NCBI GenBank assembly: GCA_903928075.1
Contig: CAIYPD010000070.1
Span: forward strand, 1,730-65,729
From: Candidatus Firestoneibacteriota bacterium
GTDB taxonomy: Bacteria; Oederibacteriota; D2-FULL-39-29
Length of the DNA stretch: 64,000 nucleotides
Direction: 5' to 3'
In this document: positions 3,939 through 58,895 of the stretch, piece after piece
How the letters are laid out: each line of letters starts with the position of its first letter
Position numbering within the stretch: position 1 is the first letter of the stretch
Program-made: the position numbers and the translations under genes
Notes under the pieces: generated by a model
Databases searched by the model: none
Told to the model about the DNA's origin: nothing
Seen by the model: the letters and a program-made list of their open reading frames with translations, nothing else

Positions 3939-4127
3939 TCCATAAAGGTCTATAAGCAAAGCTTTTCTCGATAGGAAGGATATATAGATGTCAACTACCG
4001 TTGACATAGCGAGATAAAGTCCGTAAGGTCTAAAATCTTTGAGGAATATTTAATTTTTAAGATTGTGTATCTGTGTCATCTGTTTTTTTATCTGTGACAT
4101 CAACTGCGCTTTTAGCAGCGTAAGGTC
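3939..4127 (-). repeat. Full-length copy of the dispersed composite intergenic repeat, minus orientation
   Basis: It is near-identical, as reverse complement, to 8265-8454 and 11930-12119. It contains the palindrome ATGTCAACTACCGTTGACAT and the paired ATCTGTG(A/T)CATC sites. It starts 6 bp after the stop of the 2632..3933 gene. Confidence 0.85.
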
Positions 4128-4198
4128 TAAAATCTTTGAGGGATATTTATGTAAGCTTGTTATCTTGTATTATTGTTCCATGTTTCCAAGCAGTTTGC

Positions 4199-5503
4199 CT
4201 ACCAGATCTTCACGCCCATGGCGCGTTTTAAGGAATACACACTCATCACATAAGCATACTGCGCCTGCGAATAAAAAAGTCTCGCTCTGGCCAGGGAGGT
4301 CTCAGCGTTAATAAGGTCAAGATTGGTTATTACACCATTGTCAAATCTTACCTTGGCCTGCGCCATGGCTTCTTCGGCCAGTTTTACATGAAGATCTGCA
4401 GCATTAAGCTTTTCAAAGCCGGTCTTAACATCCGAAACCGACTGTTTTATCTCCGTCGATACGGTTTCTTTAACATCCTTAACTTTGTATTCCGCCGAAG
4501 AAAGCGCGGCTTTTGCTTCCGCCTCCATATTGACCGTTCTAAAGCCGTCAAAAAGCGGTACTTTCAACCCTGCCGAAAATACCCAATTATTCTGAAGATC
4601 GGAAAGGACCGGCAGGTACCCATTCTTAAAACCCCAGGTCCCGCCAATACCAAGTGAAGGATTATCAGAATTTTCCGCAACCAATAGCTGGGCTTTTGCA
4701 ATATCCTCACTCTTCTTTGCCATAAGGTATTCTGCTCTTTGCTTTAGCGCTTTTTCTATAAAAGTGCTCTCCTCTATTTCTACCGCCTCCTGTGGAAACT
4801 TCCCTGCCAGTTTTACCTTGCCGTCAAAACCTATGTTCTTTTTCAACTGCAGGAGAGTCTTATTGTAAGAATTCTCAAAGTCAGCTTTGGCGTTCTTTGC
4901 TTCCTCCACCTTTACCTGTATGGTCAGGGCATCGTAGTCGGTGGCGCTCCCGAATTTTACTTTGTTTCTGGTTTGTTCCATATACTCGGTAAGCGAGTCT
5001 ATTTCCTTTTGAGAGACATCCACCTGCCGGGAAAGAAAGATAACGCTGTAAAATAACTGGACTGTCTGATAGGAAATCAGGGATTTTGAAAGTTCCAGAG
5101 CGTTCTCCGACTGCACCAGCATTTCTTTGGAAAGATCTATAAGAGAACCGGTCCGGCCCAGATCAAAAAGCGTGTACCTGAAGCCGACATGCATATCATA
5201 GTTGTTCTCAGGGTAAAGTTGAAAGGACCCCATCCCCGGAAAATAAAAAGGCGGATCAGGTTCCAGTCTGGCAAAAGACGCTTCCATATCGAGGGCAGGC
5301 CAGAAAGCCGCATACTTTTGGGAAAGCCTCGCCGACGCAGCGTCCCTGTCTGATGCCGCCTGTTTCACCGAAGGGTAATACTTGAGCGCCATTTCAATAG
5401 CACGCTCCACTGACAAGGTAAGCTCCGTCCCTTCCGGCCCGGCAGCCCTAGTTGGACCTAATAACCCCATAAATATTATTACTGCTAAAACAATTTTTTT
5501 CAT
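4199..5503 (-). CDS. tolC: TolC-family outer membrane efflux protein
   Basis: It has a signal peptide (MKKIVLAVIIFMGLLGPTRA) and coiled-coil/beta-barrel repeat architecture. It is the last gene of the emrA-emrB-OMP operon. Confidence 0.8.
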   Translation of the reverse strand: MKKIVLAVIIFMGLLGPTRAAGPEGTELTLSVERAIEMALKYYPSVKQAASDRDAASARLSQKYAAFWPALDMEASFARLEPDPPFYFPGMGSFQLYPENNYDMHVGFRYTLFDLGRTGSLIDLSKEMLVQSENALELSKSLISYQTVQLFYSVIFLSRQVDVSQKEIDSLTEYMEQTRNKVKFGSATDYDALTIQVKVEEAKNAKADFENSYNKTLLQLKKNIGFDGKVKLAGKFPQEAVEIEESTFIEKALKQRAEYLMAKKSEDIAKAQLLVAENSDNPSLGIGGTWGFKNGYLPVLSDLQNNWVFSAGLKVPLFDGFRTVNMEAEAKAALSSAEYKVKDVKETVSTEIKQSVSDVKTGFEKLNAADLHVKLAEEAMAQAKVRFDNGVITNLDLINAETSLARARLFYSQAQYAYVMSVYSLKRAMGVKIW

Positions 5504-5537
5504 CTTCCTCTCCCTCTTTTGTTTCTTGGCCCCATTT

Positions 5538-7164: not shown

Positions 7165-8112
7165 CTACCTCATCTTTATGAGTACTTCAACAGACATACC
7201 TGGAAGGAGTTTCCCCGAATATTTCTCCTGCTCTCTACTGTCCGGAGTAATCTTTATTGGTATACGCTGGGTTATCTTGGTAAAATTACCTGCAGCATTG
7301 CTTGCGGGAATAAGAGAGAACTGGGAAGCAGTATTGGAACCCAGCTGGGTAACCTTCCCCGACAACTTAATCCCGGAATAGGCATCCACCGTTATCTCCG
7401 AACTTTCACCGAGAGCTATCATTGAGTATTTTGTTTCTTCAAAATTTGCCGTTACCCAGATATTCTTCAAGTCATAGACTGTAAGTACCGCCTGGCCTGC
7501 TGAAACAACATCGCCCGGAAGTACCCATTTCTTTGCCACCACACCGTCCATAGAGGCTTTTACTTCCGCATTAGTTAACTGGGTCTCTACGACGCCCAAC
7601 TGGGCACTGGAGGTTTTTATCTGGGATTTTGCTATAGAGTCCGAGACCTTTGCCGCCTGGAGCGCCTTTTCGGCATGGTCATATTGTTCTTTGGCCACTA
7701 TCTTGTTGTTATATTGATTTTCAATCCTGGAGAAATCTTCTTCCGCCCGGGTAAGGTTAACCTTTGCCAGTTTGCTGTTTTCTTCCGCAAACGCAAGCGC
7801 CGCTTTGGCCTGTTCTTTTTGCGCAAGGAGGTCGGAGGCATCAAGTTTCATCAATATCTGGCCTACTTTCACATTCTCGCCTTCTTTTACAAGTATCGAA
7901 GCTATCCTTCCGGCGTATTTTGAACTCACGGTAACCTTATCTGCTTCAATCAATGCGTCATCGGTATATACCGTACTGCTGGACTTCATATACCAAACGG
8001 TAAATGCCACCGCCGCCAAAATTATTATTATCCATATCGCCATAAACATCTTCTTTTTTTGCCCGTTATTGCTCTCTATCTTCCGGGGCGCTGCCTGCTT
8101 GTGTGTTTCCAT
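7165..8112 (-). CDS. emrA: HlyD/EmrA-family membrane fusion protein
   Basis: It has a single N-terminal TM, a coiled-coil region and the beta-barrel/lipoyl domains of membrane fusion proteins. Its stop lies 2 bp before the emrB start. Confidence 0.85.
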   Translation of the reverse strand: METHKQAAPRKIESNNGQKKKMFMAIWIIIILAAVAFTVWYMKSSSTVYTDDALIEADKVTVSSKYAGRIASILVKEGENVKVGQILMKLDASDLLAQKEQAKAALAFAEENSKLAKVNLTRAEEDFSRIENQYNNKIVAKEQYDHAEKALQAAKVSDSIAKSQIKTSSAQLGVVETQLTNAEVKASMDGVVAKKWVLPGDVVSAGQAVLTVYDLKNIWVTANFEETKYSMIALGESSEITVDAYSGIKLSGKVTQLGSNTASQFSLIPASNAAGNFTKITQRIPIKITPDSREQEKYSGKLLPGMSVEVLIKMR

Positions 8113-8264
8113 TACTCCTCCGATCCTTTAAGTTAAAATATTGTTAGCAATGCTAACTATTATTTATACCATAATTCAAATATTTTTTCAATAAAACTCT
8201 TAATAAGAAACAAGGCACAAGTTTAAAGTATTTCACTCACATAAATATCCCACAACGGTTGTAG

Positions 8265-8454
8265 GCCTTACGCTGCTAAAAGCGCAGCTGATGTCACAGA
8301 TAAAAAAACAGATGACACAGATACACAATCTTAAAAATTAAATATTCTTCAACGATTTTAGACCTTATGGACTTTATCTCGCTATGTCAACGGTAGTTGA
8401 CATCTATATATCCTTCCTATCGAGAAAAGCTTTGCTTATAGACCTTTATGGACC
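8265..8454 (+). repeat. Full-length copy of the dispersed composite intergenic repeat, plus orientation
   Basis: The sequence runs GACCTTACGCTGCTAAAAGCGCAGCTGATGTCACAGAT...ATGTCAACGGTAGTTGACAT...GACCTTTATGGACC. It ends 25 bp from the stop of the ThuA-like gene. Confidence 0.85.
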
Positions 8455-8478
8455 TTTACAAACCCCTTCCCGACTATC

Positions 8479-9207
8479 TTATATCTTCTCAATCGGCTTA
8501 ACCGATTGGCCATTCGGTATCTTCGCCGAGTTTTGTACCGGCTTTGCCCATTTTACTGCGTTGAGTATCACGCGCTGGACATTTTTATTATGATAGGTGG
8601 GATGGGTTTCATGGCCGGGGCGGAAGTAGAATATTTTGCCTTTGCCCCTTATGTAACAGCAGCCGCTCCTGAAAACCTCGCCGCCTTTGAACCAGCTCAC
8701 AAAAACCAGGGACTGGGGATACGGGACATCAAAGAACTCACCGTACATTTCTTCATGCGGAAGTTCGAAGTATTCCGGCAGGCCTTCGGATATAGGATGG
8801 CCGGGATGGGTGACCCAGAGCCTTTCCTTCTCTCCTGCTTCCCTCCAGGTAAGTATGCAGGAGGTGCCCATGAGTTTTTTGAATATCTTTGAAAAGTGAC
8901 CGGAGTGCAGGACGATAAGTCCCATCCCCTGGAGAACATGTTTATGCACCCGCTCCACTATCTCATCTTTAACCTCACCGTGCGCCATATGCCCCCACCA
9001 GATAAGGACATCTGTGTTTTTCAACACCTCTTCGGTAAGTCCGTGCTCCGGCTCCACCAGGGTTGCAGTCTTAGCGGTTATCCCCTTATCCTTATTAAGC
9101 GCGGCAGCAATTACGGTATGCATCCCTTTAGGATAGATTTTCTTTATCTTTGGATTTATCAGCTCGTGCTTGAACTCATTCCAGACGGTAACTTTGATTT
9201 TCGACAT
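8479..9207 (-). CDS. ThuA-like protein (GATase1-like fold, trehalose-utilisation family)
   Basis: The motifs ([12 protein letters not shown]...GHP...RPGHETHP) resemble ThuA. The track ORF starts at a TTG, but the ATG at 9205-9207 has a good RBS (AAAGGAGAG). Confidence 0.65.
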
Positions 9208-9299
9208 ACACTCTCCTTTTATCAGATAACAAGAATACAAGAAGAAACTACCTTGATGTGTTTATCTTGCTTTCGATTGTACCTTGTACTTTATTCTCA

Positions 9300-11819
9300 T
9301 TACCACGAAAATAGTATTTCTCCTGTAACCGGGCCAACTTCCATGTATACTCCGTCAGCACCGGAAACTCTCTTGGGGGTCTTGAAAGCCCCGACTAAAT
9401 AAGGAAAAGCCGGGTCAGTCAAAATTTTGACCTGCTTTTCCGTTCCGGAGACAGGGTAAAATCTTAGCACGGCGTTTTTCAGGTTGGTGACCAGAAGACG
9501 CCGGCTAACCCCGAAATGGACGGCAGGCAGTTCGCGGCATTCAACTTTCGTACCCGAAGCCTGTTTAACAAAAATACGGCATTCATTATGCCACGCAGGC
9601 GGCAGGAGATAGTGAGCTCCGGTTTTATCCACTGTTGCGTGCGTCCCGGTAAATAAGGGCGCGCCCTCAGGGGAACTAAAGCTGATTTTGGCAACATCAT
9701 GGGGATTATACCCGCTGAAGTAAAAACCATTACGGGAACGCGAGACCGTGTGTAAAGGTGTCCGCTGAAGGGTGGTTGCTTTTGAGTGGCTTATTTTCAA
9801 ACCACCCATTTCAGCCGCCAGCAGTCGCACCAGTTGCTCTGCCGGGAAATACTTTGAAGCCGGCAAAGGTAATGGCAGTGGTCCACCCATCTTCTTTTCG
9901 TCGCAGGTCACGGTTCCACGAAGCCAACCGAGTTTTCCGCCTTTCCAGGCCGGTAGTTCAGCCAGCACGGCAAGAGCATAGGAGTTCTTCCCTCGCTTTG
10001 CAGTTGCAAGATAACGCAGATTCTTTTTGGGCTTGCCAGAAAGTTCCAGAGGCCCGCCGGAAATAATTGCCGGATGATGAAGCAGTTTACCGTAAGCAAT
10101 ACCATCGGCCCTGGTCCAGGATTTTTCCAGTGTCAGGGCAAGATCACCCTCGGCCTCAGGCGCAAGAGAAAGACCGAGTAAATCCAAAAGCTCTTTGTCT
10201 CCGACCGCCACAGGACCGTAGAAAATAACGCGGCCGCCATTTTTTATCTTTTCAAAAAGTTTTGCCCGTAATTTACTGCCCTTTTCCGGAACAGGGGTAA
10301 TAAGCAGAGAGCCTTTCAAGATTTCGGGCGCCGCAGAAAGATAGTTACCGGAACTAATTACGGTATTGATAGGGGCACCGTTATTGATGGCCCCGCGGAC
10401 ATACCAGTCCCCGAAATATACTTCGCGCAGAGCAGGATTTTTTCCGAAAACTTTCTCGTGATATTCCTTAAACGGATAAACCCAGACCAGCGGTCCAGCC
10501 TGGTCCGGCGCGTTTTCCCGGGCCCGTAAAATATGAGAAGTAACATCCGCCGGCACTTGCGCGGGCATCTCGCCTTTTGAATCGTCCACGGAGAGAAAGG
10601 CGAGAGTGTCAGGTGTTTCAGCAGTTCCCCGGCCGTTCAGACGGCTGACAGAAAGAGGCATATAGATATCATGCGGAAAACGCTGATAACGGTCGAGCCA
10701 GGGACTGTTCATCCACCACGGGTCGTGAGTATAAAAACGAAAAGGAAAACCTTTTCCGGGCAGTTCGGCAATATGGGACATCCAGCCGGCAAACTCGAGA
10801 CCAAAATCAGCGTCCAGCGCCGCCCAGGGTGAATTGACCGGTGGTTCAAGCGGGCCAAATTTATAAATATCTAAAAGAGGAACTCCGTCCGAAGCCATAT
10901 CTACGCCCGAGGTAAGATTGGTGCCGCGGGTGCGGACCAAAAGATCAGGACATTCCACACGAAAATCCTGCCAGAAACGGAGTATCCCTTCTTTTGAAGG
11001 CGCAACCGCTTCGGGCATAAATTTGTAACCGTCAAAAACCGAGCCGTTTAAACCCCAGGTTTCCATACCAAAGCCGAAGCCGTTGGAAAACCAGATGAAA
11101 TCCAATCCGAGGTTTTTATTAAAAATCTTGAGCTGACGGCCCAGGAAAGTGCCGAGAGAGGTTTTATCCGGTATGCCGTTGGGAAAGCCGGCATAAGCCA
11201 CCGTGTCTTCGTTTAAGACCGCGGCGCAGCCTAAAAAGGTCTTGCCGTACAAAGCGCCGCCGAGACAGATCTCGCGGTGCCTTTCATATTTAAAGGGTGA
11301 TTTTGCGAACTCCGGACCGGGATCAAAGGTATTCCCGACTTTTACCGGGCGCTCAAGGATGCGTTCACCTTCGGTTTTTAAATCTTTAACAAGGCCTTTT
11401 AGCCAGCCGTAGGTCAAGATTGCAGTATTTTCACGGTAGATATAAGGCCGGCGGTGGAGCCCCAGGCCTTTGGGATCCAAAGAATCCCCGTGCGCGCCTA
11501 TCCCCTGTGTGTCTTTTTCATCGGCCAGGCCGCCTTTTTTCTTAAGTTCTTGCGAATGCGCCCAGCGGTTAGCACCGCCGAGATAGCGGGCCCACTCAAT
11601 TTCCGCATTCAAGTCCCCGCGGTAGTCAAGAATTTCTGAGCCATCAGCGGTCCAGAGCATTATATGCACTTCCTCGGCATATTCACAAAGCGGGAGCCAT
11701 TGCCGGAACAACTTCCGGCAGACCGCGCGGCGGGTCTCCGCCGTATTGTCAAAGAAAGGTTTAAGGCTTATTTCCAGAGATACAACGCGAAATTTTTTCG
11801 GTTCCGGTACAAATGTCAT
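9300..11819 (-). CDS. Large hypothetical protein (839 aa), GC-richer than its neighbours, possibly carbohydrate-active
   Basis: This is a long uninterrupted ORF and no family was recognised with confidence. It lies directly upstream of the ThuA-like gene. Confidence 0.6.
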   Translation of the reverse strand: MTFVPEPKKFRVVSLEISLKPFFDNTAETRRAVCRKLFRQWLPLCEYAEEVHIMLWTADGSEILDYRGDLNAEIEWARYLGGANRWAHSQELKKKGGLADEKDTQGIGAHGDSLDPKGLGLHRRPYIYRENTAILTYGWLKGLVKDLKTEGERILERPVKVGNTFDPGPEFAKSPFKYERHREICLGGALYGKTFLGCAAVLNEDTVAYAGFPNGIPDKTSLGTFLGRQLKIFNKNLGLDFIWFSNGFGFGMETWGLNGSVFDGYKFMPEAVAPSKEGILRFWQDFRVECPDLLVRTRGTNLTSGVDMASDGVPLLDIYKFGPLEPPVNSPWAALDADFGLEFAGWMSHIAELPGKGFPFRFYTHDPWWMNSPWLDRYQRFPHDIYMPLSVSRLNGRGTAETPDTLAFLSVDDSKGEMPAQVPADVTSHILRARENAPDQAGPLVWVYPFKEYHEKVFGKNPALREVYFGDWYVRGAINNGAPINTVISSGNYLSAAPEILKGSLLITPVPEKGSKLRAKLFEKIKNGGRVIFYGPVAVGDKELLDLLGLSLAPEAEGDLALTLEKSWTRADGIAYGKLLHHPAIISGGPLELSGKPKKNLRYLATAKRGKNSYALAVLAELPAWKGGKLGWLRGTVTCDEKKMGGPLPLPLPASKYFPAEQLVRLLAAEMGGLKISHSKATTLQRTPLHTVSRSRNGFYFSGYNPHDVAKISFSSPEGAPLFTGTHATVDKTGAHYLLPPAWHNECRIFVKQASGTKVECRELPAVHFGVSRRLLVTNLKNAVLRFYPVSGTEKQVKILTDPAFPYLVGAFKTPKRVSGADGVYMEVGPVTGEILFSW

Positions 11820-11929
11820 ATCTTAGCTCCTTTAAATATAAAAAAATGCGCCGCATTTAACCCCGGCGCTTTTTTAAATTCTGTATAAACTGTTTTCTTA
11901 TTCAAATAAATATCCTTTAAAGATATTAA

Positions 11930-12119
11930 GACCTTACGCTGCTAAAAGCGCAGCTGATGTCACAGATAAAAAAACAGATGACACAGATACAGTGATGAAA
12001 ATAATAAAAATCCTACAACGATTTTAGACCTTATGGACTTTATCTCGCTATGTCAACGGTAGTTGACATCTATATATCCTTCCTATCGAGAAAAGCTTTG
12101 CTTATAGACTTTATGAACC
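11930..12119 (+). repeat. Full-length copy of the dispersed composite intergenic repeat, plus orientation
   Basis: It matches the 8265-8454 copy. It ends 5 bp from the stop of the 12124..13254 gene. Confidence 0.85.
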
Positions 12120-12123
12120 GTAT

Positions 12124-13254
12124 TTATATTTCTACCTGATACAACCGGTACTTCTTATATAAGAAGCCGCCGATATCGCTGTCAAACTTATTGATGAGGT
12201 CGTTGTCTTCAAGGTTCCAGCTCATCTCGCACCAATCATATCTGCCGTTCGCTCGGATAGCTGTCTCATAGAAAATTTCCGCAACCAGACCGGTCTGCCG
12301 GTACTCTTTTAAACAACCGCCGATAAGGGACCTGCAACCTTTTATTTTAGGTTTGTACCAGAGAAATTTAAGGAGCCCGATTATGCCCATACCCATCATC
12401 CCTTCACAGCCGCTTACATGTTTTAATACCTCATTAAGGTTGGGAAGAGTTATAGCAATACCTGCAGGCTTGCCATCTTTCGTCTCAGCGATAATTACAA
12501 CATTGGGATCCATAAACTGGAGCATACCTTCGGCCGCGCAATCCATCTCGGCGTCGGTCATCGGGACAAAGCCCCAATTTTTTTCCCAGGCCTGATTATA
12601 AACATCCTTGATTATCTGGATATCTCTTTCTTTGTTCTTCATATCAAAGCATCTTAATTTAAACTGGGAGGTTTTCTTTATCCTCAGCATCATTTTCTCT
12701 ATTCTCTCCGGCACGCCCGTGTATTTACTCTTAAGGAAAGCATAAAGATCTTTTGCCTTTTTCATCCCGTAGTCCTCTGAAAGTTTGAGATAGTATTTGG
12801 GATTGTAAGGCATCATAATTGCCGGTTCAAAATTAAAGCCTTCCAGCAAAAAGCCATACTCATCATTCGACGAGGGTGACGCCGGACCCCGCATATAGAC
12901 AGCGCCCTCTTGTTTGAGCCAGGCTTTCGCCGCATCAAAAAGAGCCCCGGAAACTTCCGTGTCATTTATAGATTCAAAGTAGCCAAAAAAACCGGCTTTT
13001 TCTTCGTGAATCTTGTTGTGCATCTCATCGGTTATTGCCGCGATACGGCCGGCAACTTTATTGTCTTTGTAGGCCAGAAAGAGTTTTCTCTTGGCATGCT
13101 GCCAGAAAGGATATTTAGTTACATCAAGCATTTTTCTATATTCGCTTTTCAGGTTGGGTATCCAGTAGGGGTTATTCTTATAAATCATCCAGGGCAGGTC
13201 TATGAATTCCTTTAGTTCGCCTTCTTTTTCAACTTCCCTTATGGAAATAGTCAT
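12124..13254 (-). CDS. GNAT-fold acyltransferase, FemAB/Acetyltransf_6-like (376 aa)
   Basis: Its size and the motif pattern (FIDLPWMIYKNNPYW...) are reminiscent of FemAB-like GNAT proteins. The assignment rests on recollection. Confidence 0.45.
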   Translation of the reverse strand: MTISIREVEKEGELKEFIDLPWMIYKNNPYWIPNLKSEYRKMLDVTKYPFWQHAKRKLFLAYKDNKVAGRIAAITDEMHNKIHEEKAGFFGYFESINDTEVSGALFDAAKAWLKQEGAVYMRGPASPSSNDEYGFLLEGFNFEPAIMMPYNPKYYLKLSEDYGMKKAKDLYAFLKSKYTGVPERIEKMMLRIKKTSQFKLRCFDMKNKERDIQIIKDVYNQAWEKNWGFVPMTDAEMDCAAEGMLQFMDPNVVIIAETKDGKPAGIAITLPNLNEVLKHVSGCEGMMGMGIIGLLKFLWYKPKIKGCRSLIGGCLKEYRQTGLVAEIFYETAIRANGRYDWCEMSWNLEDNDLINKFDSDIGGFLYKKYRLYQVEI

Positions 13255-19031: not shown

Positions 19032-19249
19032 ATGCTCAACTTCTCATAATTCACCTTGTTTTTCTTCCATCTATTAACTATTGTTCTATTGTTCCATTGC
19101 TCTACCCCGGGAGTAGGTATGGATGAGGGTAATGATTCACTTAAAGTCTGTAAAAGTCTATCAAGGTTCGTAAAAGTTTTTAAATGAAAGACCAGAAAAT
19201 ATCGTCTGATACTTTTTAGATTTGGAACTTCCACCTACCCTCTCCATTA

Positions 19250-19363
19250 AATATCCTTCAACGATTTTAGACCTTATGGACCTTATCTCGCTATGTCAAC
19301 GGATGTTGACATTTATATATCCTTCCTCTCGAGAAAAGCTTTGCTTATAGACCTTTATGGACC
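19250..19363 (+). repeat. Module-B (palindrome-containing half) copy of the dispersed repeat
   Basis: The sequence runs TTCAACGATTTTAGACCTTATGGACCTTATCTCGCTATGTCAACGGATGTTGACAT...GACCTTTATGGACC. It lies 48 bp after the stop of the UroD-like gene. Confidence 0.8.
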
Positions 19364-19410
19364 ATTAACAATATTCCTAAGTTTTTAAGACTTTAAAAAC
19401 TATTTTTACA

Positions 19411-20565
19411 CTAGCCGTTTCTCAGTTCTTTCCAGACGGCTATCATTTTATAAAAGTTTCTTCTGGTGGTGGCATCGGTGCTCAAGTAGATGGAATCTCC
19501 CGGGGCCAGAATGTAACCGCCTCCGCTCGCAAGTTTATGCACCGCATCTTTAACTGCGGCTTCTACTTCCGCTTCGGTGCCCTTTTCCAGCACGAGAAAG
19601 TTATTTACCCCGCCGCAAAGTGCCATTTCTTTGCCTACCGTCTCTTTTATTTTTACCAGGTCGGTGTTACCGAGGAGCGGGTCAAAATTTGAAAAGATGT
19701 CAAATTTTAATTCTTTAAACATCTCCAGGAGAGACATAGTCCCGGAGTTCATACAGTAATCATAAGTAACATTAGCCCGGTGACAGGTCTCTACTTCGTC
19801 TTTTAGAAAATCAAAAAACAACTCTCTGTAAAGTGCAGGGGACCAGAAGTCTGTGCTCTCATACCAGCCGCGCCTTATCATATGATCTACTCCGCCCTCA
19901 AGCATTATTTCCATTCTTCGTTTGTTCCACTTTCCTACAATGGCAGTATATCTTTTCAAAAACTCCGGGGCATCCTGGGAAGCCAACAAAACATTCTCCA
20001 CGCCGGAAAACCAGATAAGCGAATCGCCTACACCGGAGAGATAGCCGGTCATAATTAAACCTTTTTCGTCGCAAAACTTTTTTGTTTCTTTTGCGTCCTT
20101 CATAAAGTCATCCAGCTCTTTACCTTCCGGAGAGACAAGGATCTGTTCCAGCTTTTCAAGGTCTTCTTCTTTTTCTACCAGGAACTGTTTTGATCTTGAC
20201 ACATTATGGTCGCTAATCAATCTTATTGGCCCGGGATAATCTTCTGTTCTACGCACCACCTGGAACAATGAGCCTTTTTTTGTTATATATTCCTTGTGAA
20301 GAATCGGATAAATCTCGTTTTTTTGCGTTTCTATCCATTCCTTTACGGTATAATTTGCAGTGGAATTTATCGGGGGAGTTATCGAAACCGCTGTATCCAG
20401 ACCCAGTTCAAGAAAAAATGAGGCCCTTTCATATTTATCCGGATACATTTCGCTCACGAAGGTCACAACGCCGTGGCAGATACCGTCAAAACACATAGGC
20501 AGGTGGTCGGTTTTCTCATGCCTGATAGTCGCTTTTATTCTTTCTTTAGAACTCATCTTTTGCAT
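19411..20565 (-). CDS. Uroporphyrinogen-decarboxylase (URO-D/MtaA/CmuA) family protein
   Basis: The TIM-barrel family features and the C-terminal GGGYILAPG motif are typical of the UroD/MtaA family. An AAAGGAG RBS is present. Confidence 0.6.
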   Translation of the reverse strand: MQKMSSKERIKATIRHEKTDHLPMCFDGICHGVVTFVSEMYPDKYERASFFLELGLDTAVSITPPINSTANYTVKEWIETQKNEIYPILHKEYITKKGSLFQVVRRTEDYPGPIRLISDHNVSRSKQFLVEKEEDLEKLEQILVSPEGKELDDFMKDAKETKKFCDEKGLIMTGYLSGVGDSLIWFSGVENVLLASQDAPEFLKRYTAIVGKWNKRRMEIMLEGGVDHMIRRGWYESTDFWSPALYRELFFDFLKDEVETCHRANVTYDYCMNSGTMSLLEMFKELKFDIFSNFDPLLGNTDLVKIKETVGKEMALCGGVNNFLVLEKGTEAEVEAAVKDAVHKLASGGGYILAPGDSIYLSTDATTRRNFYKMIAVWKELRNG

Positions 20566-48739: not shown

Positions 48740-50320
48740 ATGAAATACCTGGAATTCAAAATAGCAGTTCTGGAAAGAACAGGCCTGGATGAAAGAGCGT
48801 TTCGTGAATCGGGAAGCGAAATATACATTGCCGCCAATCTTGAAAATTTTCACGGTATCTGTCTTCTTCTTCACAGTATACTTTCCTCCCCGGTAATGCT
48901 TTATTTTGCCGAAGATAATGTAAAAACCAGCGGTGTTTACACTCTCCGTTGCGGTTTTCTCGGGAAAAAAATACAAAGATGGGTTTTTGTGGTAGTTGAT
49001 ATCCCAAAGGATAATTTAAATTTTCCGGCAATATCCAAGGACATTGTTTCCGCGCAGTTATTCGAGCGGGAAATAAAAGAGATGTTCGGATTAATCCCGG
49101 CAGGAAGCCCCGATGTCCGGAGGCTTCGTCTTCATGATGAAGTCTGGCCGGATGGATATTTTCCGTTGAGAAAAGAATTCGTCAAACCCGAAAAGACAAA
49201 TAATACCGGAAAATATTATGTTTTTGACAGAATAGAAGGGGAAGGGGTTTTTGAGGTCCCCGTCGGACCGGTTCATGCCGGAATAATTGGACCCGGACAT
49301 TTCAGATTTTCGGTTGCCGGTGAGCCAATTATTAATCTTGAGCTCAGGCTCGGATTTGCGCACCGGGGTGCAGAAAAACTCTTTGAAGGTAAATCTGCCA
49401 AAGAAGCTCAAATATTTTCCGAATGTATTTCCGGGGATGCGGCTTTTGCTCATAGCCTTGCTTTTTCTCTTGCGGTCGAGCAGGCTGCGGGGATTGATGT
49501 AAAAGAAAATGTAAAAATAAATAGGGCTATAGGTTTGGAGCTTGAAAGAATCTATAATCATATTAACGATATTGGCGGAATGGCTATAGATGTGGCTTTC
49601 TCTTATTCTTCCACTCTGGCTTCAATTGTAAAAGAAAATATTTTAAGGCTTAACGAAAAACTTTCAAAACACAGATATTTAAAAGGAAGCAACGGTGTCG
49701 GACAGTGCGCACTGATCAAAGATAAAGAGAGCCGGGTTTGTCTGCTTGAAGTATTGTCCGGAGCAAAAACAGACATAGATCTATTGAAAAATATTCTATT
49801 TTCCAGCGTTTCCTTTATGGATAAGGTAGATACAACAGGCACATTGCATAGAAAAACGGCGGAAGATTTTGGGGTTACCGGTCTTGCCGGCCGCGCCTCT
49901 GGGCTAGAACTCGACCTTCGTAGAGTTTTTCCCGGTATATATGAAAAAACTTCTTTTGAAATTATAAGAGGAGATAAAGGCGATGTTCTTTCCCGCTTAA
50001 ATGTACGATTTAACGAGCTCGCCGTGGCTCTTCGGGTCATAACTGAGCTTTCCGGACAGATAAATTTTAGCGGAAAAGAAGATTCTCCCGAGGCAATAAT
50101 AATATCCGGTACCGGACTCGGAGCAGTGGAAGGCTGGCGCGGCCCGATAATTTACTGGGTTAAGATCGGCAAAGAAGGGAAAATAGAAAGATGCAAAATT
50201 GTAGATGCTTCTTTTAATAACTGGCAGGCTCTTTCCTGCTGTGTACACGGAAATATCATTCCTGATTTTCCGGTTTGCAACAAGAGTTTTGACTTTTCTT
50301 ACTCCGGAGGGGACCTGTGA
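48740..50320 (+). CDS. Fused NuoC–NuoD-like 'large subunit' homologous to HycE/HyfG, apparently lacking the NiFe-ligating cysteines
   Basis: A NuoC-like N-domain is followed by a NuoD/[NiFe]-large-subunit-like domain. The region corresponding to the N-terminal CxxC reads SECISGDAAFAHS. The C-terminal DPCxxC position reads FDFSYSGGDL. The start is the ATG at 48740, with a GGAG RBS. Confidence 0.75.
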   Translation: MKYLEFKIAVLERTGLDERAFRESGSEIYIAANLENFHGICLLLHSILSSPVMLYFAEDNVKTSGVYTLRCGFLGKKIQRWVFVVVDIPKDNLNFPAISKDIVSAQLFEREIKEMFGLIPAGSPDVRRLRLHDEVWPDGYFPLRKEFVKPEKTNNTGKYYVFDRIEGEGVFEVPVGPVHAGIIGPGHFRFSVAGEPIINLELRLGFAHRGAEKLFEGKSAKEAQIFSECISGDAAFAHSLAFSLAVEQAAGIDVKENVKINRAIGLELERIYNHINDIGGMAIDVAFSYSSTLASIVKENILRLNEKLSKHRYLKGSNGVGQCALIKDKESRVCLLEVLSGAKTDIDLLKNILFSSVSFMDKVDTTGTLHRKTAEDFGVTGLAGRASGLELDLRRVFPGIYEKTSFEIIRGDKGDVLSRLNVRFNELAVALRVITELSGQINFSGKEDSPEAIIISGTGLGAVEGWRGPIIYWVKIGKEGKIERCKIVDASFNNWQALSCCVHGNIIPDFPVCNKSFDFSYSGGDL

Positions 50321-50823
50321 ACAATATTATAAATATTGCGAACGCGAGGATACAAAAAGGTATAGTTACCGAAAACCTCGACCTTATTGGGTCTAAACTT
50401 AAAACAGAGATTCAAAAGAAATTTGCAAGATCACTTTTTCTCAGAGAAGTTGATACCGGTTCTTGCGGCGCCTGTGAGTCAGAGATAATCTCCGCCATCA
50501 ATCCAGTTTACGATCTGCAAAGATTCGGCGTAGATTTTGTCGCTTCACCCAGGCACGCTGATGCGCTTTTAGTGACCGGCCCGGTCTCGCTCAATATGAG
50601 CCTTGCGCTTAAAAGGACCTACGAAGCAATGCCTTCTCCAAAATTTGTTATTACCGCCGGAGACTGCGCTCTTGATGGAGGTCCGTTCAAAGGCTCTTAC
50701 TATATAGAAGGCGGTGTCAGCAAGATAATCCCTGTAGTTTTTCATATTCCCGGCTGTCCCCCTAAACCCATAGACCTGGTCTTAGCCCTTCTTCTTGCCG
50801 TAAAAAATCTAAAAAGAAGCTAA
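50317..50823 (+). CDS. NuoB/HycG-like small subunit with intact [4Fe-4S] ligands
   Basis: Cys ligands are conserved: SCGACESE, GDCALDGG and PGCPP. The GTG start overlaps the upstream stop. Confidence 0.8.
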   Translation: MNNIINIANARIQKGIVTENLDLIGSKLKTEIQKKFARSLFLREVDTGSCGACESEIISAINPVYDLQRFGVDFVASPRHADALLVTGPVSLNMSLALKRTYEAMPSPKFVITAGDCALDGGPFKGSYYIEGGVSKIIPVVFHIPGCPPKPIDLVLALLLAVKNLKRS

Positions 50824-51874: not shown

Positions 51875-51970
51875 GTTCGTAAGGTCTAGAAGCAAAGCTT
51901 TTCTCGTTAGGAATTATATATAGATGCCAACTATCGTTGACATAGTGAGATAAAGTCTAAAATCTCGAAG
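51875..51970 (-). repeat. Module-B copy of the dispersed repeat, minus orientation
   Basis: The sequence runs ...AGCAAAGCTTTTCTCGTTAGGAATTATATATAGATGCCAACTATCGTTGACATAGTGAGATAAAG. It lies 9 bp after the UbiA stop. Confidence 0.75.
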
Positions 51971-52031
51971 TATATCTAAATTAAAAATACACTGGGTCCC
52001 TCCGCTGGCGGCGGACTAGGATGACAAAATA

Positions 52032-54183: not shown

Positions 54184-55074
54184 TTACGGCCTTGGATGAA
54201 ACTTCTTATGCACTTCTCTAAGGCGTGACCGGTCAATATGTGTATATATTTGTGTAGTTGAAATACTCGCATGGCCCAGCATCTCCTGCACGCTACGCAA
54301 ATCCGCGCCATGGGTAAGCAGATGTGTAGCAAAAGTATGCCTTAGTGTATGCGGCGTTATCTCTTTTCTTAAACCCGCTTCTGCCACTCTCTTGACAATT
54401 ATCTTCCAGAGCCAGACTCTGCTAAATTTTTTCCCTTTTTTGTTAAGAAACAATTCTCCGGAAGAAGTCGCGGTTTTATCAAGGATGCCTCTTCTTACTT
54501 TATCTATATATTCATCCACCCAGTCGGCGGCAATCTTCCCCACGGGAACTATTCTCTCTTTACTTCCTTTCCCCATACAGCGAATATACTGCGCCACCGT
54601 ATCATAATCATGTATCTTTAAATTTGCAACCTCAGAAATTCGCATTCCGGTGGCATACATTAGCTCAAGTATAGCACGGTCCCGCAAGCCCCCCGGAGTC
54701 AGCGTATTTACTCCGTCCAGCAGAGCGGATATCTCCGCTTCAGAAAGAACATCCGGCAGTTTTTTGTTAAGCCGGGGTGCTTCCAGTTCCGAAGCCGGAT
54801 TATGTTTTATATTTTTTTCCAGCGAGAGGAATTTAAAGAAAGTTTTTATGGCCGAAAGTTTTCTTGCGGAGGAGCTGGGGTCATATTTTGTTCTCATCTC
54901 ATAGAGATAATCTATAACATCGCGCTTTCCTATCTGGGCCGCGTCCGCTATGCCTTTTTTTTCAATAAAATCCATAAACTGATTTATATCATTCCGGTAT
55001 GAATTAACGGTACTGCCCGGATAGCGTCGTTCAGTCGAGAGGTACATTAAAAATTCAGGTACTAACTCCCGCAT
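54184..55074 (-). CDS. xerD: Tyrosine site-specific recombinase XerD/XerC
   Basis: The conserved R...H..R...Y box is present: HTLRHTFATHLL...LGHASISTTQIYTHI. Confidence 0.88.
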   Translation of the reverse strand: MRELVPEFLMYLSTERRYPGSTVNSYRNDINQFMDFIEKKGIADAAQIGKRDVIDYLYEMRTKYDPSSSARKLSAIKTFFKFLSLEKNIKHNPASELEAPRLNKKLPDVLSEAEISALLDGVNTLTPGGLRDRAILELMYATGMRISEVANLKIHDYDTVAQYIRCMGKGSKERIVPVGKIAADWVDEYIDKVRRGILDKTATSSGELFLNKKGKKFSRVWLWKIIVKRVAEAGLRKEITPHTLRHTFATHLLTHGADLRSVQEMLGHASISTTQIYTHIDRSRLREVHKKFHPRP

Positions 55075-55639: not shown

Positions 55640-55741
55640 ATTCTTTGCTCCGCAAAAAATAGTCTCAAGGTCCATAAAGTCTGTAAGGTATAAAAATCTT
55701 TGAGATTATTTTTAATAATTGACTTAAAATACTACATTAGT

Positions 55742-55848
55742 GTAAGACCTTACGGACTTTACAGACTTTATCTCGCTATGTCAAAGTATTTTGACATCCA
55801 TATATACTTCCTCTCGAGAAAAGCTTTGCTTATAAACCTTACGAACCT
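55742..55848 (+). repeat. Module-B copy of the dispersed repeat (variant palindrome ATGTCAAAGTATTTTGACAT)
   Basis: The sequence runs GTAAGACCTTACGGACTTTACAGACTTTATCTCGCTATGTCAAAG...CTTATAAACCTTACGAACC. It ends 8 bp before the MBL hydrolase stop. Confidence 0.75.
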
Positions 55849-55855
55849 TAAAAAC

Positions 55856-56491
55856 CTATCTTTCAATAAATGGATTCTTTCTTCGTTCGAAACCTATCGT
55901 CGTCATCTCGCCGTGCCCCGGATAAACCCTTACATCATCATCTAATTTCATCAGTTTCTCAAGAGATTTCAGCATCTCCTCATGATTGGCATGCGGAAAG
56001 TCGGTCCTGCCGATTGAGCCGTAAAAGAGCGTGTCGCCAGAAAAAAGATGTTTACCTGTAAGCAAACAGATTCCTCCCGGCGTGTGCCCCGGCGTATGGA
56101 TAACTTTTAATTCCATTTTTCCGGCCCTTATAATATCATCCCCGGCAATATATTTATCCGCGCTTACTTTATCCGTTCCGTCCCCAAAAAGCGAGGAGCC
56201 GTTTAGTTCAGGATGCTCCATAAAAATATTATCCTCTTTGTGGGCCAAAAGTTTCGCGCCGGTCTTTATTTTAATTTCCTCGACCGCCCCGATATGGTCA
56301 TAGTGCCCGTGCGTCAGGATTATATATTTAACTTTTATTTTATTCTCATCAATAACACGTAAAATCTTTCCCGCTTCCTCTCCAGGATCAATCACCACAC
56401 CTTCCAGCGTCTCAGAATCCGCGGCAACAAAACAGTTAGTCTCTATAGCCCCAACGACAACACACTTTACAATAATATTCATAAATACCAC
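55856..56491 (-). CDS. MBL-fold metallo-hydrolase (GloB-like)
   Basis: It has the HxHxDH motif (ILTHGHYDHIGA) and HTPGHTPGG. Confidence 0.85.
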   Translation of the reverse strand: MVFMNIIVKCVVVGAIETNCFVAADSETLEGVVIDPGEEAGKILRVIDENKIKVKYIILTHGHYDHIGAVEEIKIKTGAKLLAHKEDNIFMEHPELNGSSLFGDGTDKVSADKYIAGDDIIRAGKMELKVIHTPGHTPGGICLLTGKHLFSGDTLFYGSIGRTDFPHANHEEMLKSLEKLMKLDDDVRVYPGHGEMTTIGFERRKNPFIER

Positions 56492-56789
56492 CGCCCAAAA
56501 TATTTATCTATGAACCTCTTCGAGCTTACGCACGGAGTTTCGACGATTGGAATATTATCGATTATTCATGCCAAATTCATCCCACGAGCTAACGCTCGGG
56601 GTTTTCTTTAGCATAACGTCATAAAGGTCTATCAAAGTCTGTAAAAGTTTTTTGTCATCACGGAATCCGGTTTCTTGGATATCCGGGACCTCTTTTTACC
56701 CGCCAGTCTTTTTGGAAGGCAGCGTCCACAGCGATTTTTACCAAATTCAATGTCTAAGTCCTTATAAACTTTACAGACTTTACGAACCT

Positions 56790-58679
56790 TTATTTATTGT
56801 TTTCCAGCCTTTCTTTTTTCTTTAAAAGGTATCCCGCACGGTTATACATCCCGGCCTTTGACAGCGCCTCAGCTTTGCACATAAGCAGCAGCTCCAGTTT
56901 TAGCTTAGAAGCGGCAAAATCCCGGCCGGCCAGCTCCCCGTTTAAAAAAAGCACACGGTCATAATATTTTTTTGCCAATGGCAGCCTCTTTGCTTTCTCG
57001 GCGACTTTTCCCGTACCGATAAGAGCCTCCATGTATTCCGGATAAATACGCAGCGTCCTTTCGAACATCTTAAGCGCATCCGCGTTAAAACCGTTCGCGG
57101 CGAAAAATTCCCCCTGCGCAGTAAGCGCGAAAGCATAATGATCCAGCGCCATCTTCTGTCTTTCGTAACCGGGCGCATTTTTTAAGAGTACCGCCTTTTC
57201 CACGCCTTCATAGGTTTCCCAGAGCAGATCCGCTTCGCCTTTGTCGTATTGTACCGCCGTTTTTTTCTTAACCGGCAGGTACATCATCCCTCGCGGAATA
57301 ATATCGTAATTTTCCCAGGCAGCGGTTTCGTACGGATAGTAGTTAAGGTAGACCGGCCTTTTGCCGTAGTTCCGGTCAATAACATCTTTTAATTTCTCGC
57401 GATTTCCCGGTATAATTTCTATTTTTTTCCCAGCGCCCTCCGCGTACCTGCAGTACCAGAGAGAAAATATCGGCAGGTCCCCGTTGGTTATCACGAGCGC
57501 GCCGTCCTCTACCGACCTTATAATATTCCTTCCAAAATCACGGTCCGCGGTATAGAGGCTCATATCAGCAGTTCTGTAATTTAATGGAAAAAACGAAAAA
57601 GCGAAAATACCAAAGCCGGTCAGCAAAAAGGCCCTGTATTTATTCCCAGCCCACTCCAAAATTTGCTGTATCCCGGTACCAGCGCAGACCGCAAAAACCA
57701 CAAAGGAGGAAAAATAATAGGTTGCAATATTTTGCGGATCAATAATATTATAATTTATAAAAATAATCGCGTTACAGGCAAGAACCCCCGCCAGAAAAAG
57801 AAATACAGAAAGTTTTACCCGGTAAAGATAAAATAATCCTATTAAAGCCAGGAGATAGCCTGCCGGGGAAAACTCACCTGCAAAATTTGTCCAAAGCTGC
57901 GTCACCAAACGGCCGGCCGGGTTTATTTTTTCCGCGCTAAACATTGCGTAGCGGTACTCCCTGGCCGAAATGTGGTTCAATATTTTCTCAAGAGTGTCCG
58001 GATTTGACCATTTTAGCGGTGCAGACGAACCGGCGCTTAACGGCAGATAGGCGTAGAGCAGAAGCGGGAGCAGAAAAGCCCCGATAGGCTTCCACCAGTC
58101 CTCAAAAGCATATTTTTCCGTCCGAACAAGGTAAAGAAATGGAAGAATGAAGACTATCAGTGAAAGGTGATGTGTTAACCCGAGGCCCAGCAAAAATGCA
58201 AAGACTGGTATTTTCTTTTTAGAGAATTTAAGAGCCGTATAAGTCAAAACTGCGGCAAAAAAAGCATAAAGTGTATACTTTTCCGCGAAAACAGCGTAAC
58301 TCCAGAATGTAACAGAAAAAGCCAAAAGGAAAGCCGCCGCCGCTCCTGCCACCTGGTTTCCCGTAATTTTCCGCACCGAGAGAAACACAAAAAAGGCCGC
58401 CAGTGCTGCAAAAACTGCCGACATAAAATTATACCTTACTGCGATATTCCCGAGTGGAAGAAAAGAAAAGAATTTCCCGAGGAGCATATACAGCGGAAAA
58501 CCCGAAGGGTGTGAAACTCCAAGTACATAGGAAGCCGTAACCATATCCCCTGAATCCCTAAACCCGATAGTCGGCGCAAGCGTCAACAGGTAAATGGTGA
58601 GAATAAAAACAAATAAACCTGAAGACATCAGCCGGTGATAACTCCATTTTACTTGTTTAATCAGACTTATTTTTTTCAA
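56790..58679 (-). CDS. DUF2723 (TMEM260-like putative glycosyltransferase) polytopic membrane protein with C-terminal TPR repeats
   Basis: It has about 12 TM segments with an early DSGD motif, and a TPR-like C-terminus (YYDRVLFLN...). Confidence 0.5.
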   Translation of the reverse strand: MKKISLIKQVKWSYHRLMSSGLFVFILTIYLLTLAPTIGFRDSGDMVTASYVLGVSHPSGFPLYMLLGKFFSFLPLGNIAVRYNFMSAVFAALAAFFVFLSVRKITGNQVAGAAAAFLLAFSVTFWSYAVFAEKYTLYAFFAAVLTYTALKFSKKKIPVFAFLLGLGLTHHLSLIVFILPFLYLVRTEKYAFEDWWKPIGAFLLPLLLYAYLPLSAGSSAPLKWSNPDTLEKILNHISAREYRYAMFSAEKINPAGRLVTQLWTNFAGEFSPAGYLLALIGLFYLYRVKLSVFLFLAGVLACNAIIFINYNIIDPQNIATYYFSSFVVFAVCAGTGIQQILEWAGNKYRAFLLTGFGIFAFSFFPLNYRTADMSLYTADRDFGRNIIRSVEDGALVITNGDLPIFSLWYCRYAEGAGKKIEIIPGNREKLKDVIDRNYGKRPVYLNYYPYETAAWENYDIIPRGMMYLPVKKKTAVQYDKGEADLLWETYEGVEKAVLLKNAPGYERQKMALDHYAFALTAQGEFFAANGFNADALKMFERTLRIYPEYMEALIGTGKVAEKAKRLPLAKKYYDRVLFLNGELAGRDFAASKLKLELLLMCKAEALSKAGMYNRAGYLLKKKERLENNK

Positions 58680-58767
58680 GACTTTCCGCCTTTTAAATTC
58701 TAAGATAAAACCACTAAATTCTAAACAAGGAGTTTATTATTGTATTGTTTTACCAAATAAATTATTT

Positions 58768-58895
58768 TTATCTTGCTATGTCAACAACAGTTGACATCAA
58801 TATATCCTTCCTCTCAAGAAAAGCTTTTACTTATCTTGCTATGTCAACGACTGTTGACATTTCTATATATCTTTCCACTCAAGAAAAACTATTGT
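58768..58895 (+). repeat. Two tandem partial module-B cores of the dispersed repeat
   Basis: Two cores are present: TTATCTTGCTATGTCAACAACAGTTGACATCAATATATCCTTCCTCTCAAGAAAAGC and TTATCTTGCTATGTCAACGACTGTTGACATTTCTATATATC... They lie 34 bp from the heptosyltransferase stop. Confidence 0.75.

Follow-up and report, generated by a model that had tools for sequence, protein, structure and literature searches.

A gene-oriented mosaic repeat with a conserved three-helix core in Candidatus Firestonebacteria

Small interspersed repeats are known from well-studied bacteria, where they include the REP/BIME, BOX, MIRU and Correia families, and what they do is still a matter of debate. REPs, imperfect palindromes rich in GC and marked by a 5' GTAG, alternate in inverted orientation and have a link to RAYT transposases. 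To our knowledge, near-complete locking of a small interspersed repeat to the strand of the neighbouring gene is rare. Here we describe a family of intergenic repeats from a 64-kb stretch of DNA of a Candidatus Firestoneibacteriota bacterium (64,000 nucleotides (nt); GenBank assembly GCA_903928075.1, contig CAIYPD010000070.1, positions 1,730 to 65,729 of the forward strand), which in its full length is referred to as the window. The original prediction, made from the letters of the window, had described a dispersed repeat of about 190 bp with a palindromic core, locked in orientation to the 3' ends of upstream genes. What makes the family notable, in an uncultured candidate phylum, is a 94% orientation lock, a position tens of nt past stop codons, a conserved core, and the character of this core as an optional insert in a simpler array.

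Among the closest described systems, REP/BIME repeats are high-copy, extragenic, hairpin-forming elements (PMC2817692, PMC3479197) of transcribed 3'-end or intercistronic spacers, for which a role as stabiliser of the upstream mRNA has been proposed. The BOX elements of Streptococcus pneumoniae are modular (boxA-boxB(n)-boxC), with terminal inverted repeats (TIRs, boxA/boxC), target duplications and a strand bias that is only weak, about 61% being on the leading strand (PMC3049150). SPRITEs combine an 18-bp duplex with a long U-rich tract, are enriched between convergent genes, and have been proposed to be tolerated or co-opted at 3' ends (PMC3049150). MIRUs insert at start codons, carry an open reading frame (ORF) coupled to the gene by a -4 overlap, and are not hairpins. 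The TAACTGA arrays of Beggiatoaceae and the cyanobacterial STRR heptamers are intergenic direct repeats, the former lying a few nt upstream of starts with a period of 7 (PMC4679880).

A conserved three-helix core in a mosaic of modules

In an alignment of 42 distinct cores from the window and related contigs, the conserved unit of the family is a core of 62-66 bp, which reads on the gene-sense strand TRTAAGCAAAGCTTTTCTCGAKAGGWAnnATATATAG-ATGTCAAC-N4-GTTGACAT-AG-CGAGATAA. Three helices make up this core, namely P3 (AAGC/GCUU, 4 bp), P1 (UCUCG/CGAGA, 5 bp) and P2, an 8-bp palindrome with a free 4-nt loop, and RNAalifold, given the 42 sequences, independently predicts the same three helices as drawn. 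The hairpin of the original prediction is supported by compensatory changes in a covariation check on this alignment. Once the divergent copies of L045 are added (loci on related contigs carry L numbers), five pairs have changed on both sides, in 9 cells: C-G to A-U at P2 position 8 (window 55768 and L042b), A-U to U-A at P2 position 1 (L043b and L045), C-G to U-A in P1 (both window 587xx units) and, in P3, A-U to G-C (L008) and G-C to A-U (window 58827). None of 500 shuffles reaches the observed number of both-side-changed pairs, the covariation score or the percentage paired, and the share of paired cells, 98.5%, drops to 26-52% if the partners are slid. Five of the eight pairs of P2 are the same in every copy, including those of the divergent L045 subfamily, where the arms of P2 read TTGCCAAC/GTTGACAA, and the loop is 4 nt long in almost all copies.

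On both sides the core is embedded in arrays of a 9-mer (TAAGGTYYR, 2-6 copies) that run in the same direction: within 30 nt of the core, the forward motif has 39 matches on the upstream side and 30 on the downstream side, against 0 and 2, respectively, for the reverse motif. It is this variable array that had been taken for a fixed terminus, the "GGACC end". Alternative periodic flanks, TTAGTGC and GTACGAAG, are found in some lineages or loci, and inverted 9-mer arrays are frequent 60-180 nt farther downstream of cores. The core is commonly followed by an optional tail box, GGTCTAAAATCGTTGAAGGATATT, and in some copies the tail box is followed by module A, also optional, which consists of two direct repeats of ATCTGTGWCATC and of a hairpin, GCTGC-N7-GCAGC, with a covarying form, GCCGC/GCGGC, in L024, L029 and L036. 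Tandem cores with a period of 62-63 are present at window 58768, L041, L042 and L045 (two each) and at L028 (three). Since tandem cores, 9-mer arrays, tail box and module A combine variably, the family is a mosaic of modules. The 190-bp repeat proposed as the unit does exist, as one combination among them; three full composites in the window are 89-95% identical over ~220 bp (blastn within the window). The conserved unit, however, is the core.

Some loci show rearrangements within or beside this mosaic. The orthologous spacers at L011 7732-7798 and L019 350-417 are 92% identical, with the core shifted by one 9-mer (two 9-mers before and none after it, versus one before and one after), which suggests movement or recombination inside the array. 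At L021, an inside-out palindrome, TTTTGACAT-AAAAA-ATGTCAAAA, lies directly past the stop codon and upstream of a normal core at 1128-1195. A separate hairpin repeat, TGTCATCCCG-loop-CGGGATCCAGYGTCT, adjoins cores in three unrelated loci (L012 ~1330-1370; L016 ~60-100, together with the matching end of L040; L043 ~9880-9920).

Orientation, position and turnover at gene 3' ends

Genes were called with a crude codon-usage caller and hand-checked where needed, and identical and orthologous loci were merged into 34 independent loci. In 32 of these, the core is co-oriented with the gene that ends on its TAAGC side (binomial p = 6.9e-8), with L012 and L033 anti-oriented and one divergent spacer besides. 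The median distance is 26.5 nt from stop codon to core and 158 nt from core to next start, and the core lies nearer the stop than the next start in 26 of 29 tandem loci (p = 1.5e-5). At each of the window loci, a stop codon of the same strand sense lies 17-61 nt from the TAAGC end of the core, and beside + strand genes (3951 and 51887) the cores have the reverse orientation of those at the other five loci. The orientation rule that had been stated for the window (7/7) is thus correct there and extends to the independent loci; the lock, though strong, has exceptions. Of the seven window copies, six have co-directional genes on either side, and are therefore equally "upstream of the next gene". 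At L008, L015 and L023, the upstream ORF terminates at the element's own TAA or TAG.

The divergent spacer between tRNA-Met and a GT9 gene is informative in this regard, as its core faces the tRNA in L002/L030 but GT9 in L016/L040. Because the core can point either way there, a gene 3' end is the usual but not the obligatory place for a core. We infer that orientation is tied to gene strand and not to replication direction, since a 64-kb stretch cannot switch replication direction as often as the copies flip with gene strand within the window; an orientation set by replication was rejected for this reason. A second short repeat in the window, AACTCTTTTTAAKACTTTTTCAGMTAYAATTCTGATAATTTTA (43 nt, 93% identical; 28651-28693 (-) and 50848-50890 (+)), begins 0 and 25 nt past the stops of 28693..29664 and 50317..50823, each time gene-sense, and is another 3'-end-associated, orientation-matched repeat.

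A repeat search and blastn of the 8236-8460 copy against the window identify seven occupied loci with eight cores (Table 1), and all copy positions of the original prediction were confirmed by these searches and by reading of the sequence; the matches at copies 6 and 7 run over 55755-55849 and, for the two tandem units, 58767-58827 and 58831-58900. GTTGACAT occurs 13 times in the window, against 0.76 expected, and each occurrence lies within a core; the tail box occurs six times (0.01 expected) and module A three times (0 expected). A "collapsed fragment" reported at 724-772 does contain repeat pieces, 9-mers and a tail box, but it has no core and points against the neighbouring genes. The flanking genes of the window are unrelated chromosomal ones (LPG-synthase-like, outer-membrane efflux, HlyD, ThuA, DegT, URO-D-like, UbiA, UvrB, MBL-fold and GT9 heptosyltransferase).

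Table 1. Copies and coreless relatives of the repeat in the window. For the copies, the strand is the gene-sense strand of the neighbouring upstream gene.
Feature	Position	Strand	Parts	Setting and remarks
Composite copy 1	3938..4155	+	9-mers; core 3951-4017; tail box 4027-4050; module A 4066-4131; second tail box 4124-4147	Core 17 nt past stop of 2632..3933 (LPG_synthase_C-like); spacer convergent with 4199..5503
Composite copy 2	8236..8464	-	Core 8374-8440; tail box 8341-8364; module A 8263-8325	Core 38 nt past stop of ThuA-like gene 8479..9240; 261 nt ahead of start of 7165..8112
Composite copy 3	11902..12119	-	Core 12040-12106; tail box 12007-12030; module A 11929-11991	Core 17 nt past stop of 12124..13254; 220 nt ahead of start of 9300..11819
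Copy 4	19246..19367	-	9-mers; core 19283-19349; tail box 19250-19273	Core 61 nt past stop of 19411..20565; inverted 9-mer array next, ~19140-19185
Copy 5	51875..51982	+	Core 51887-51953	Flipped along with its + strand genes; core 20 nt past UbiA stop (51866), 78 nt ahead of UvrB start (52032); sense strand has G-U in P1, C-A in P2
Copy 6	55740..55852	-	Core 55768-55834	Core 21 nt past stop of MBL-fold gene 55856..56491; P2 closing pair C-G to A-U (compensatory)
Copy 7	58768..58893	-	Two tandem cores, 58768-58827 and 58831-58893, period 63	35 nt past stop of GT9 gene 58929..59942; TTAGTGC-type short repeats replace usual 9-mers; P1 C-G to U-A in both units, P3 G-C to A-U in one unit
Coreless fragment	730..772 (blastn extent 712-775)	+	Solo 9-mers; tail box 749-772	Opposes both neighbouring - strand genes in direction
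Coreless relative	56620..56792	-	Forward 9-mer array 56767-56792; inverted 9-mer array ~56620-56655	Forward array starts at TAA stop of 56790..58679; inverted array ~110 nt beyond

Two further observations concern the surroundings of these copies. The distal tail box of copy 2 (8249-8265, -) is mutated into a 7-bp hairpin, CCTACAACCGTTGTGGG, followed by ATATTTAT, which the terminator scan marks on the sense strand as resembling a terminator. A gene for an XerC/D-type tyrosine recombinase (54184-55074, -) sits between copies 5 and 6, in a synteny that is kept in L005; this is probably a housekeeping gene unrelated to the repeats.

The family extends beyond the window. When 185,579 species-representative genomes were scanned with an exact pattern whose anchor lies outside the hairpin, two matched, both of them metagenome-assembled genomes (MAGs) of Candidatus Firestonebacteria. 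Across UbiA-UvrB, L002, which comes from a Firestonebacteria MAG, shares synteny and 71-78% nucleotide identity with the window, so that the window very probably stems from a relative. A scan of JGI metagenomes with a hairpin-anchored pattern, which fixed most of P2, returned 40 contigs, of which 39, from lakes or sediments, carry true copies and one (L031) is a chance match. IMG/VR viral contigs and PLSDB plasmids had no matches to the repeat, and a phage or plasmid origin was discarded on this basis. A covariance-model search of the collected loci added no copies to the nhmmer set, the divergent L045 subfamily having come through a protein-led search alone. The 4227 Rfam models at gathering threshold find nothing in the window and 10 loci except a tRNA, and a known RNA family was likewise dismissed, as there was no above-threshold match, including in E-value mode on the element; the best sub-threshold match, to RF01691 (Bacillus-plasmid RNA) at window 8383-8413, scores 22.2 bits against a gathering score of 31. 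None of 15 titles listed out of 17 papers that mention Firestonebacteria deals with repeats. The notion of a real dispersed family unlike described ones therefore holds outside the window, and the family appears so far to be previously undescribed and restricted, in the pattern scans, to relatives of Firestonebacteria.

Comparison among relatives reveals both constraint and turnover. Cores that share a position in different species (window 55768/L005, L023/L039, L007/L017 and L002/L016) are 85-91% identical; the flanking proteins that were checked are 65% and 80% identical, and a shared downstream gene 57%. L005, for example, has its core past its orthologue of the window MBL-fold gene (55856..56491). 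The differences among paired cores fall in the flanks, in the hairpin loop and its closing pair, and in a few internal-loop columns. Similarly, conservation of the core across the 42-sequence alignments is lowest in the columns of the hairpin loop, and it reaches at least 90% in most of the columns that the search pattern left free (P3, the first strand of P1 on the 5' side, AGG). This is not a pattern of neutral decay. At least four cross-species same-position pairs are present among 38 loci, where random independent placement would give ~0.2 by a rough estimate that is not a computed test.

Other positions differ in occupancy. The UbiA-UvrB spacer, filled in the window (51887), is 56 bp and empty in L016 and coreless in L002. 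L045, which was retrieved through its ThuA homologue alone (79% identity, pattern-free), is syntenic with the window: past ThuA it has two tandem co-oriented cores that match the window 8374 position, past the 377-aa gene, where the window has core 12040, it has no element, and past the LPG-synthase-like gene, where the window has core 3951, it has a 9-mer array and a tail-box-like sequence without a core. There is thus presence/absence polymorphism at orthologous sites (51887 versus L016 and L002; 12040 and 3951 versus L045). Because L045 keeps the array without a core past the LPG-synthase-like gene, the core is an optional insert in the 9-mer array, and the array itself can persist at a gene end.

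The marks of a classical transposon are not found at these inserts. There are no TIRs, the sole terminal complementarity being the 5-bp P1 helix, and composites carry direct, not inverted, tail-box copies at their ends. With all boundary choices considered in 39 loci, there is no consistent target-site duplication (TSD) of at least 5 nt; the best boundary match, 4 nt in 16 loci, is explained by the element's own TAAG...ATAAG ends. A classical transposon was rejected on both counts. Clustering of the predicted proteins from ~360 kb of loci uncovers no recurrent protein family beside the copies, and a recurrent neighbouring transposase was set aside on this basis. A comparison of L010 (~7440-7575) and L018 (~2000-2115), which represent the same locus in two assemblies, shows an IS30-like element, recognised by its transposase C-terminus (...RKKLGYETPLKIF) and a terminal repeat, that abuts the tail of the element in L010 and is absent in L018. 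This IS30-like gene is a secondary insertion beside the element, and the repeats may be insertion hot spots.

Possible roles of the element

The setting of the cores is consistent with their transcription as part of the upstream gene. In L023, where the core is in a convergent spacer, a canonical bidirectional terminator (764-795) follows ~75 nt past the core, which places the core inside the 3' untranslated region (UTR); the orthologous L039 has the same layout by eye, with a loop too long for the terminator-scan rule. At L042 (tmk), L019, L008 and window 51887, the next start lies only ~50-80 nt past the core and leaves little room for a separate promoter. From this context, it is very probable that the sense transcript of the upstream gene carries the element and its hairpin, as had been proposed. 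The terminator role that had been suggested along with it is not supported, since the hairpin is followed by AGCGAGAUAAGG, no U-tract, on the sense strand, and some copies are apparently operon-internal. The scan for sense-strand intrinsic terminators makes no call at cores, and this candidate was dropped in view of the missing U-tract, the lack of a call and the position of the L023 terminator beyond the core. P2 alone passes a lenient terminator rule in L023 on the antisense strand. The sense-strand spacers of this genome are C-poor (15.6% C), and the element matches them (13.6% C) only in its usual orientation; C depletion is general to these spacers and was set aside as an element-specific feature.

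A different hairpin is found in leaders, directly before starts, at window 18995-19035, 28570-28625, 29689-29718 and ~51990-52020 and also in L007, L009, L012, L014 and L015. It takes the form UCCGCC-loop-GGCGGA or, longer, GUCCACC..GGUGAGAUCUCG..GGCGGA, matches nothing in Rfam, and may be a 5'UTR element particular to the lineage.

The explanation that we prefer, tentatively and short of calling it probable, is that the core is a cis-acting, transcribed RNA module of 3'UTRs and intercistronic spacers, similar to REP and BOX, that is recognised in a sequence-specific manner. The sense transcript would fold into P3, P1 and P2, leaving a purine-rich asymmetric internal loop (AGGWA..AUAUAUAG) exposed, and this fold would be recognised sequence-specifically by a protein or by the ribosome. 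The module would then act in cis on the fate of 3'-end or intercistronic RNA, perhaps as a barrier to 3'-to-5' decay, a processing site or an insulator, as with REP and BOX. It would spread or disappear as an optional insert within 9-mer arrays, and the orientation lock would be kept because the sense orientation alone yields a functional, or harmless, RNA.

A number of observations count against this proposal. Transcription of the element rests on context. The predicted folding energies are -16.5 kcal/mol for the sense strand (z = -2.2) and -14.2 kcal/mol for the antisense strand (z = -1.6), a modest stability with unremarkable z-scores. Wobble pairs do not resolve which strand folds, with three cells possible on the sense strand only (G-U/U-G) and three cells, from two loci, on the other strand only (sense C-A), and naming the strand by this means was abandoned. 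The helices could form equally in single-stranded DNA. The invariance of P2 in the metagenome copies is partly built in, because the pattern fixed most of P2, and L045 shows that variants exist. Sequence conservation goes beyond the needs of a pure exonuclease barrier, and would fit a dimeric DNA-binding protein on the palindrome just as well. Turnover is high, as would be expected of a selfish element: L045 has a core at only one of three window positions, and two relatives have none in the UbiA-UvrB spacer.

Such a selfish element, non-autonomous, mosaic, mobile and without host function, is the main alternative, a possible if doubtful account of the family. Its core would insert into and leave pre-existing 9-mer arrays, its conservation would reflect recognition by a mobilising enzyme under a master-copy model, and its orientation bias would arise because only sense insertions past a stop are harmless, the opposite orientation bringing a C-richer, pyrimidine-rich stretch (UCCUUCC) into the mRNA. 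The element's fit to the C-poor spacers in the usual orientation only is in line with this, as are the presence/absence differences at orthologous spacers, the bare array with a tail box in L045 exactly at the position of a window core, the variation in tandem units (1-3) and in the number of 9-mers, the shifted core of L011 and L019, and the frequent breaking of contigs at the element; MIRUs, moreover, are a precedent for a repeat built for tolerance in operons (PMC12548453). This account is at odds, however, with the lack of TIRs, of a consistent TSD and of a recurrent nearby protein family, and with the excess of same-position pairs between species. The paired copies differ mainly at variable columns, and neutral relics would need gene conversion or re-insertion to look as they do. 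It is likewise conceivable, but improbable, that the element is a portable promoter cassette that drives the downstream co-directional gene, in which the 3' arm of P2 is a perfect -35 box (TTGACA), a flanking 9-mer 17 bp away supplies a weak -10 box (TAAGGT/TAAAGT), and the palindrome is an operator overlapping the -35. TTGACA-N17-TAAGGT/TAAAGT is present in 15 of 18 loci with a 9-mer downstream flank, L001 has TTGACA-N18-TATTAT and then a Shine-Dalgarno (SD) sequence and ATG, a co-directional gene lies downstream of 6/7 window copies and in most other loci, and the divergent tRNA-Met/GT9 core faces one gene in L002 and the other in L016/L040. Nevertheless, TAnnnT at a spacer of 16-18 is found in 19/41 loci overall and in 4/23 without a 9-mer flank, and because of this dependence the -10 box is not a property of the conserved core. 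A consensus promoter scan does not call the cassette, and tRNA-Met has a promoter of its own (TTGATT-N17-TAAAAT). A promoter also leaves unexplained the conservation and compensatory changes of P1 and P3, the closeness to the upstream stop, and the copies in convergent spacers (window 3951, L023/L039). A sigma-70 promoter borne by the core itself was excluded, as by eye there is no internal -35/-10 pair on either strand, and the flank-dependent TTGACA-N17-TAAGGT is absent in 22/41 loci.

The near-invariant arms of the palindrome, with their fixed 4-bp spacer of free sequence, also invite the idea of a BIME-like site at the level of DNA, a quite improbable one in our judgement, in which a dimeric protein would sit on the 8-4-8 palindrome and other factors on the 9-mer arrays. 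A nucleoid-associated protein, a topoisomerase or a polar barrier to transcription or replication might in this way organise supercoiling or block polymerases at gene ends. The mosaic with other short motifs is BIME-like, and the wobble counts favour neither RNA strand. Intrastrand pairing is indicated, however, by the compensatory changes, both those in P1 and P3, which are not palindromic, and those at positions 1 and 8 of P2; a symmetric operator gives no cause for the orientation lock, and no candidate protein is known. In a separate by-eye comparison, none of the consensus sites of IHF, sigma-54, boxA/nut, dif/Xer and CRP/FNR type fits. Finally, most copies contain an SD-like motif, an AUG and an in-frame UAA, and the core could be read as a mini-cistron (AAGGA-N7-AUG with a 9-codon ORF, MSTTVDIAR, that ends at a conserved UAA) which would hold ribosomes on a long untranslated spacer and so prevent polarity or help re-initiation, as proposed for MIRUs. 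These organisms do use GGAGG-type SD sequences, and every tandem unit has its own copy of the mini-ORF. This reading is nonetheless very unlikely. Conservation does not extend to the second GGA of the SD-like motif, the AGGWA that is conserved stands 10-11 nt away from the AUG, and the AUG is changed to UUG in L043b and L045 with compensation in the helix, so that pairing is what persists. The frame shifts where the loop varies in length (L042b, L043b), the stop is lost in three copies, a stop-free hairpin loop is uninformative, and the mini-ORF does not overlap the flanking stop or start codons. With neither start codon nor frame conserved, a mini-ORF was set aside as the conserved feature.

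If the RNA module that we prefer is real, an unrecognised layer of post-transcriptional control would exist in this phylum, together with a binding factor yet to be named; if the selfish account is true, the family would be a clean example of selection for transcript compatibility that shapes where and how repeats survive. A bolder version, which we regard as unlikely, is that a dedicated factor specific to the lineage recognises the core on hundreds of transcripts, as a phylum-wide punctuation of mRNA 3' ends and intercistronic junctions (processing, stability, ribosome handling), and that the core spreads by transcription-coupled or RNA-mediated, orientation-specific insertion into stop-codon 9-mer arrays. 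Such spreading, if true, would be a mode of mobility and targeting not described for bacterial small repeats. In practical terms, the element breaks metagenome assemblies of these organisms and is a possible lineage marker.

Comparison with described repeats

The family resembles REP/BIME repeats in that it consists of extragenic hairpins in spacers at gene 3' ends that form mosaics with short motifs, and the stabiliser model adopted above is taken from them; in its presumed mode of action it comes nearest to REP/BIME and BOX. In the strict sense, the original label of a REP-like element does not apply. The stem ATGTCAAC/GTTGACAT is AT-rich (3/8 G-C pairs) and is preceded by ATATAG, without GTAG, and the copies are single or in direct tandem, not in inverted pairs, with an orientation locked to the gene. 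No RAYT is evident in the collected loci, which cover no complete genome. Nor is the element a MITE in the strict sense, given the lack of terminal inverted repeats and of a consistent TSD of at least 5 nt. With BOX, it shares a modular build whose central unit may be missing or present in tandem, and predicted stem-loops upon co-transcription with neighbours, but it differs in having no TIR or TSD, a 94% orientation lock and an unrelated sequence. SPRITEs are likewise dispersed repeats enriched near the 3' ends of coding sequences; the present element, however, has no sense U-tract, lies mostly between co-directional genes, some with operon-like spacing, and at L023 has a terminator beyond its core.

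Like MIRUs, the cores are short units of variable tandem number (1-3) between co-oriented genes, in gene-sense orientation and with a small ORF (PMC12548453). They differ from MIRUs in their position past stop codons, in their three-helix hairpin, and in a mini-ORF contained within the core and tens of nt distant from both genes; where the upstream ORF ends at the element (L008, L015 and L023), the mini-ORF is uncoupled from it. The 9-mer arrays resemble STRR and TAACTGA repeats as intergenic direct repeats that are strand-specific relative to genes, but they start at or just past stops, have a period of 9, and form the bed for a hairpin core. RF01691 has the same stem and start of the loop (UGUCAAC-GGUA...GUUGACA), but the 30-nt loop insert of the model is missing here and the estimated E-value is above 1 for a window-sized search, so that the match is probably a coincidence.

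The lack of TIR and TSD and the conserved TAAG at the sense 5' boundary would be compatible with an IS200/IS605-type element, of which neither a TnpA nor a second end was identified, but orientation here follows gene strand and not the lagging-strand template. Integron attC sites, which follow cassette ORFs in an array beside intI and keep structure rather than sequence, differ in turn, as the flanks here are unrelated housekeeping genes (UvrB, UbiA, lipid A genes) and the sequence itself is highly conserved; no IntI is present, and the sole integrase-family gene looks XerC/D-type. Although the defining features of MITE, BOX, REP, SPRITE and MIRU are each lacking, the family takes its place among the small interspersed intergenic repeats as a real, non-chance, orientation-locked mosaic repeat.

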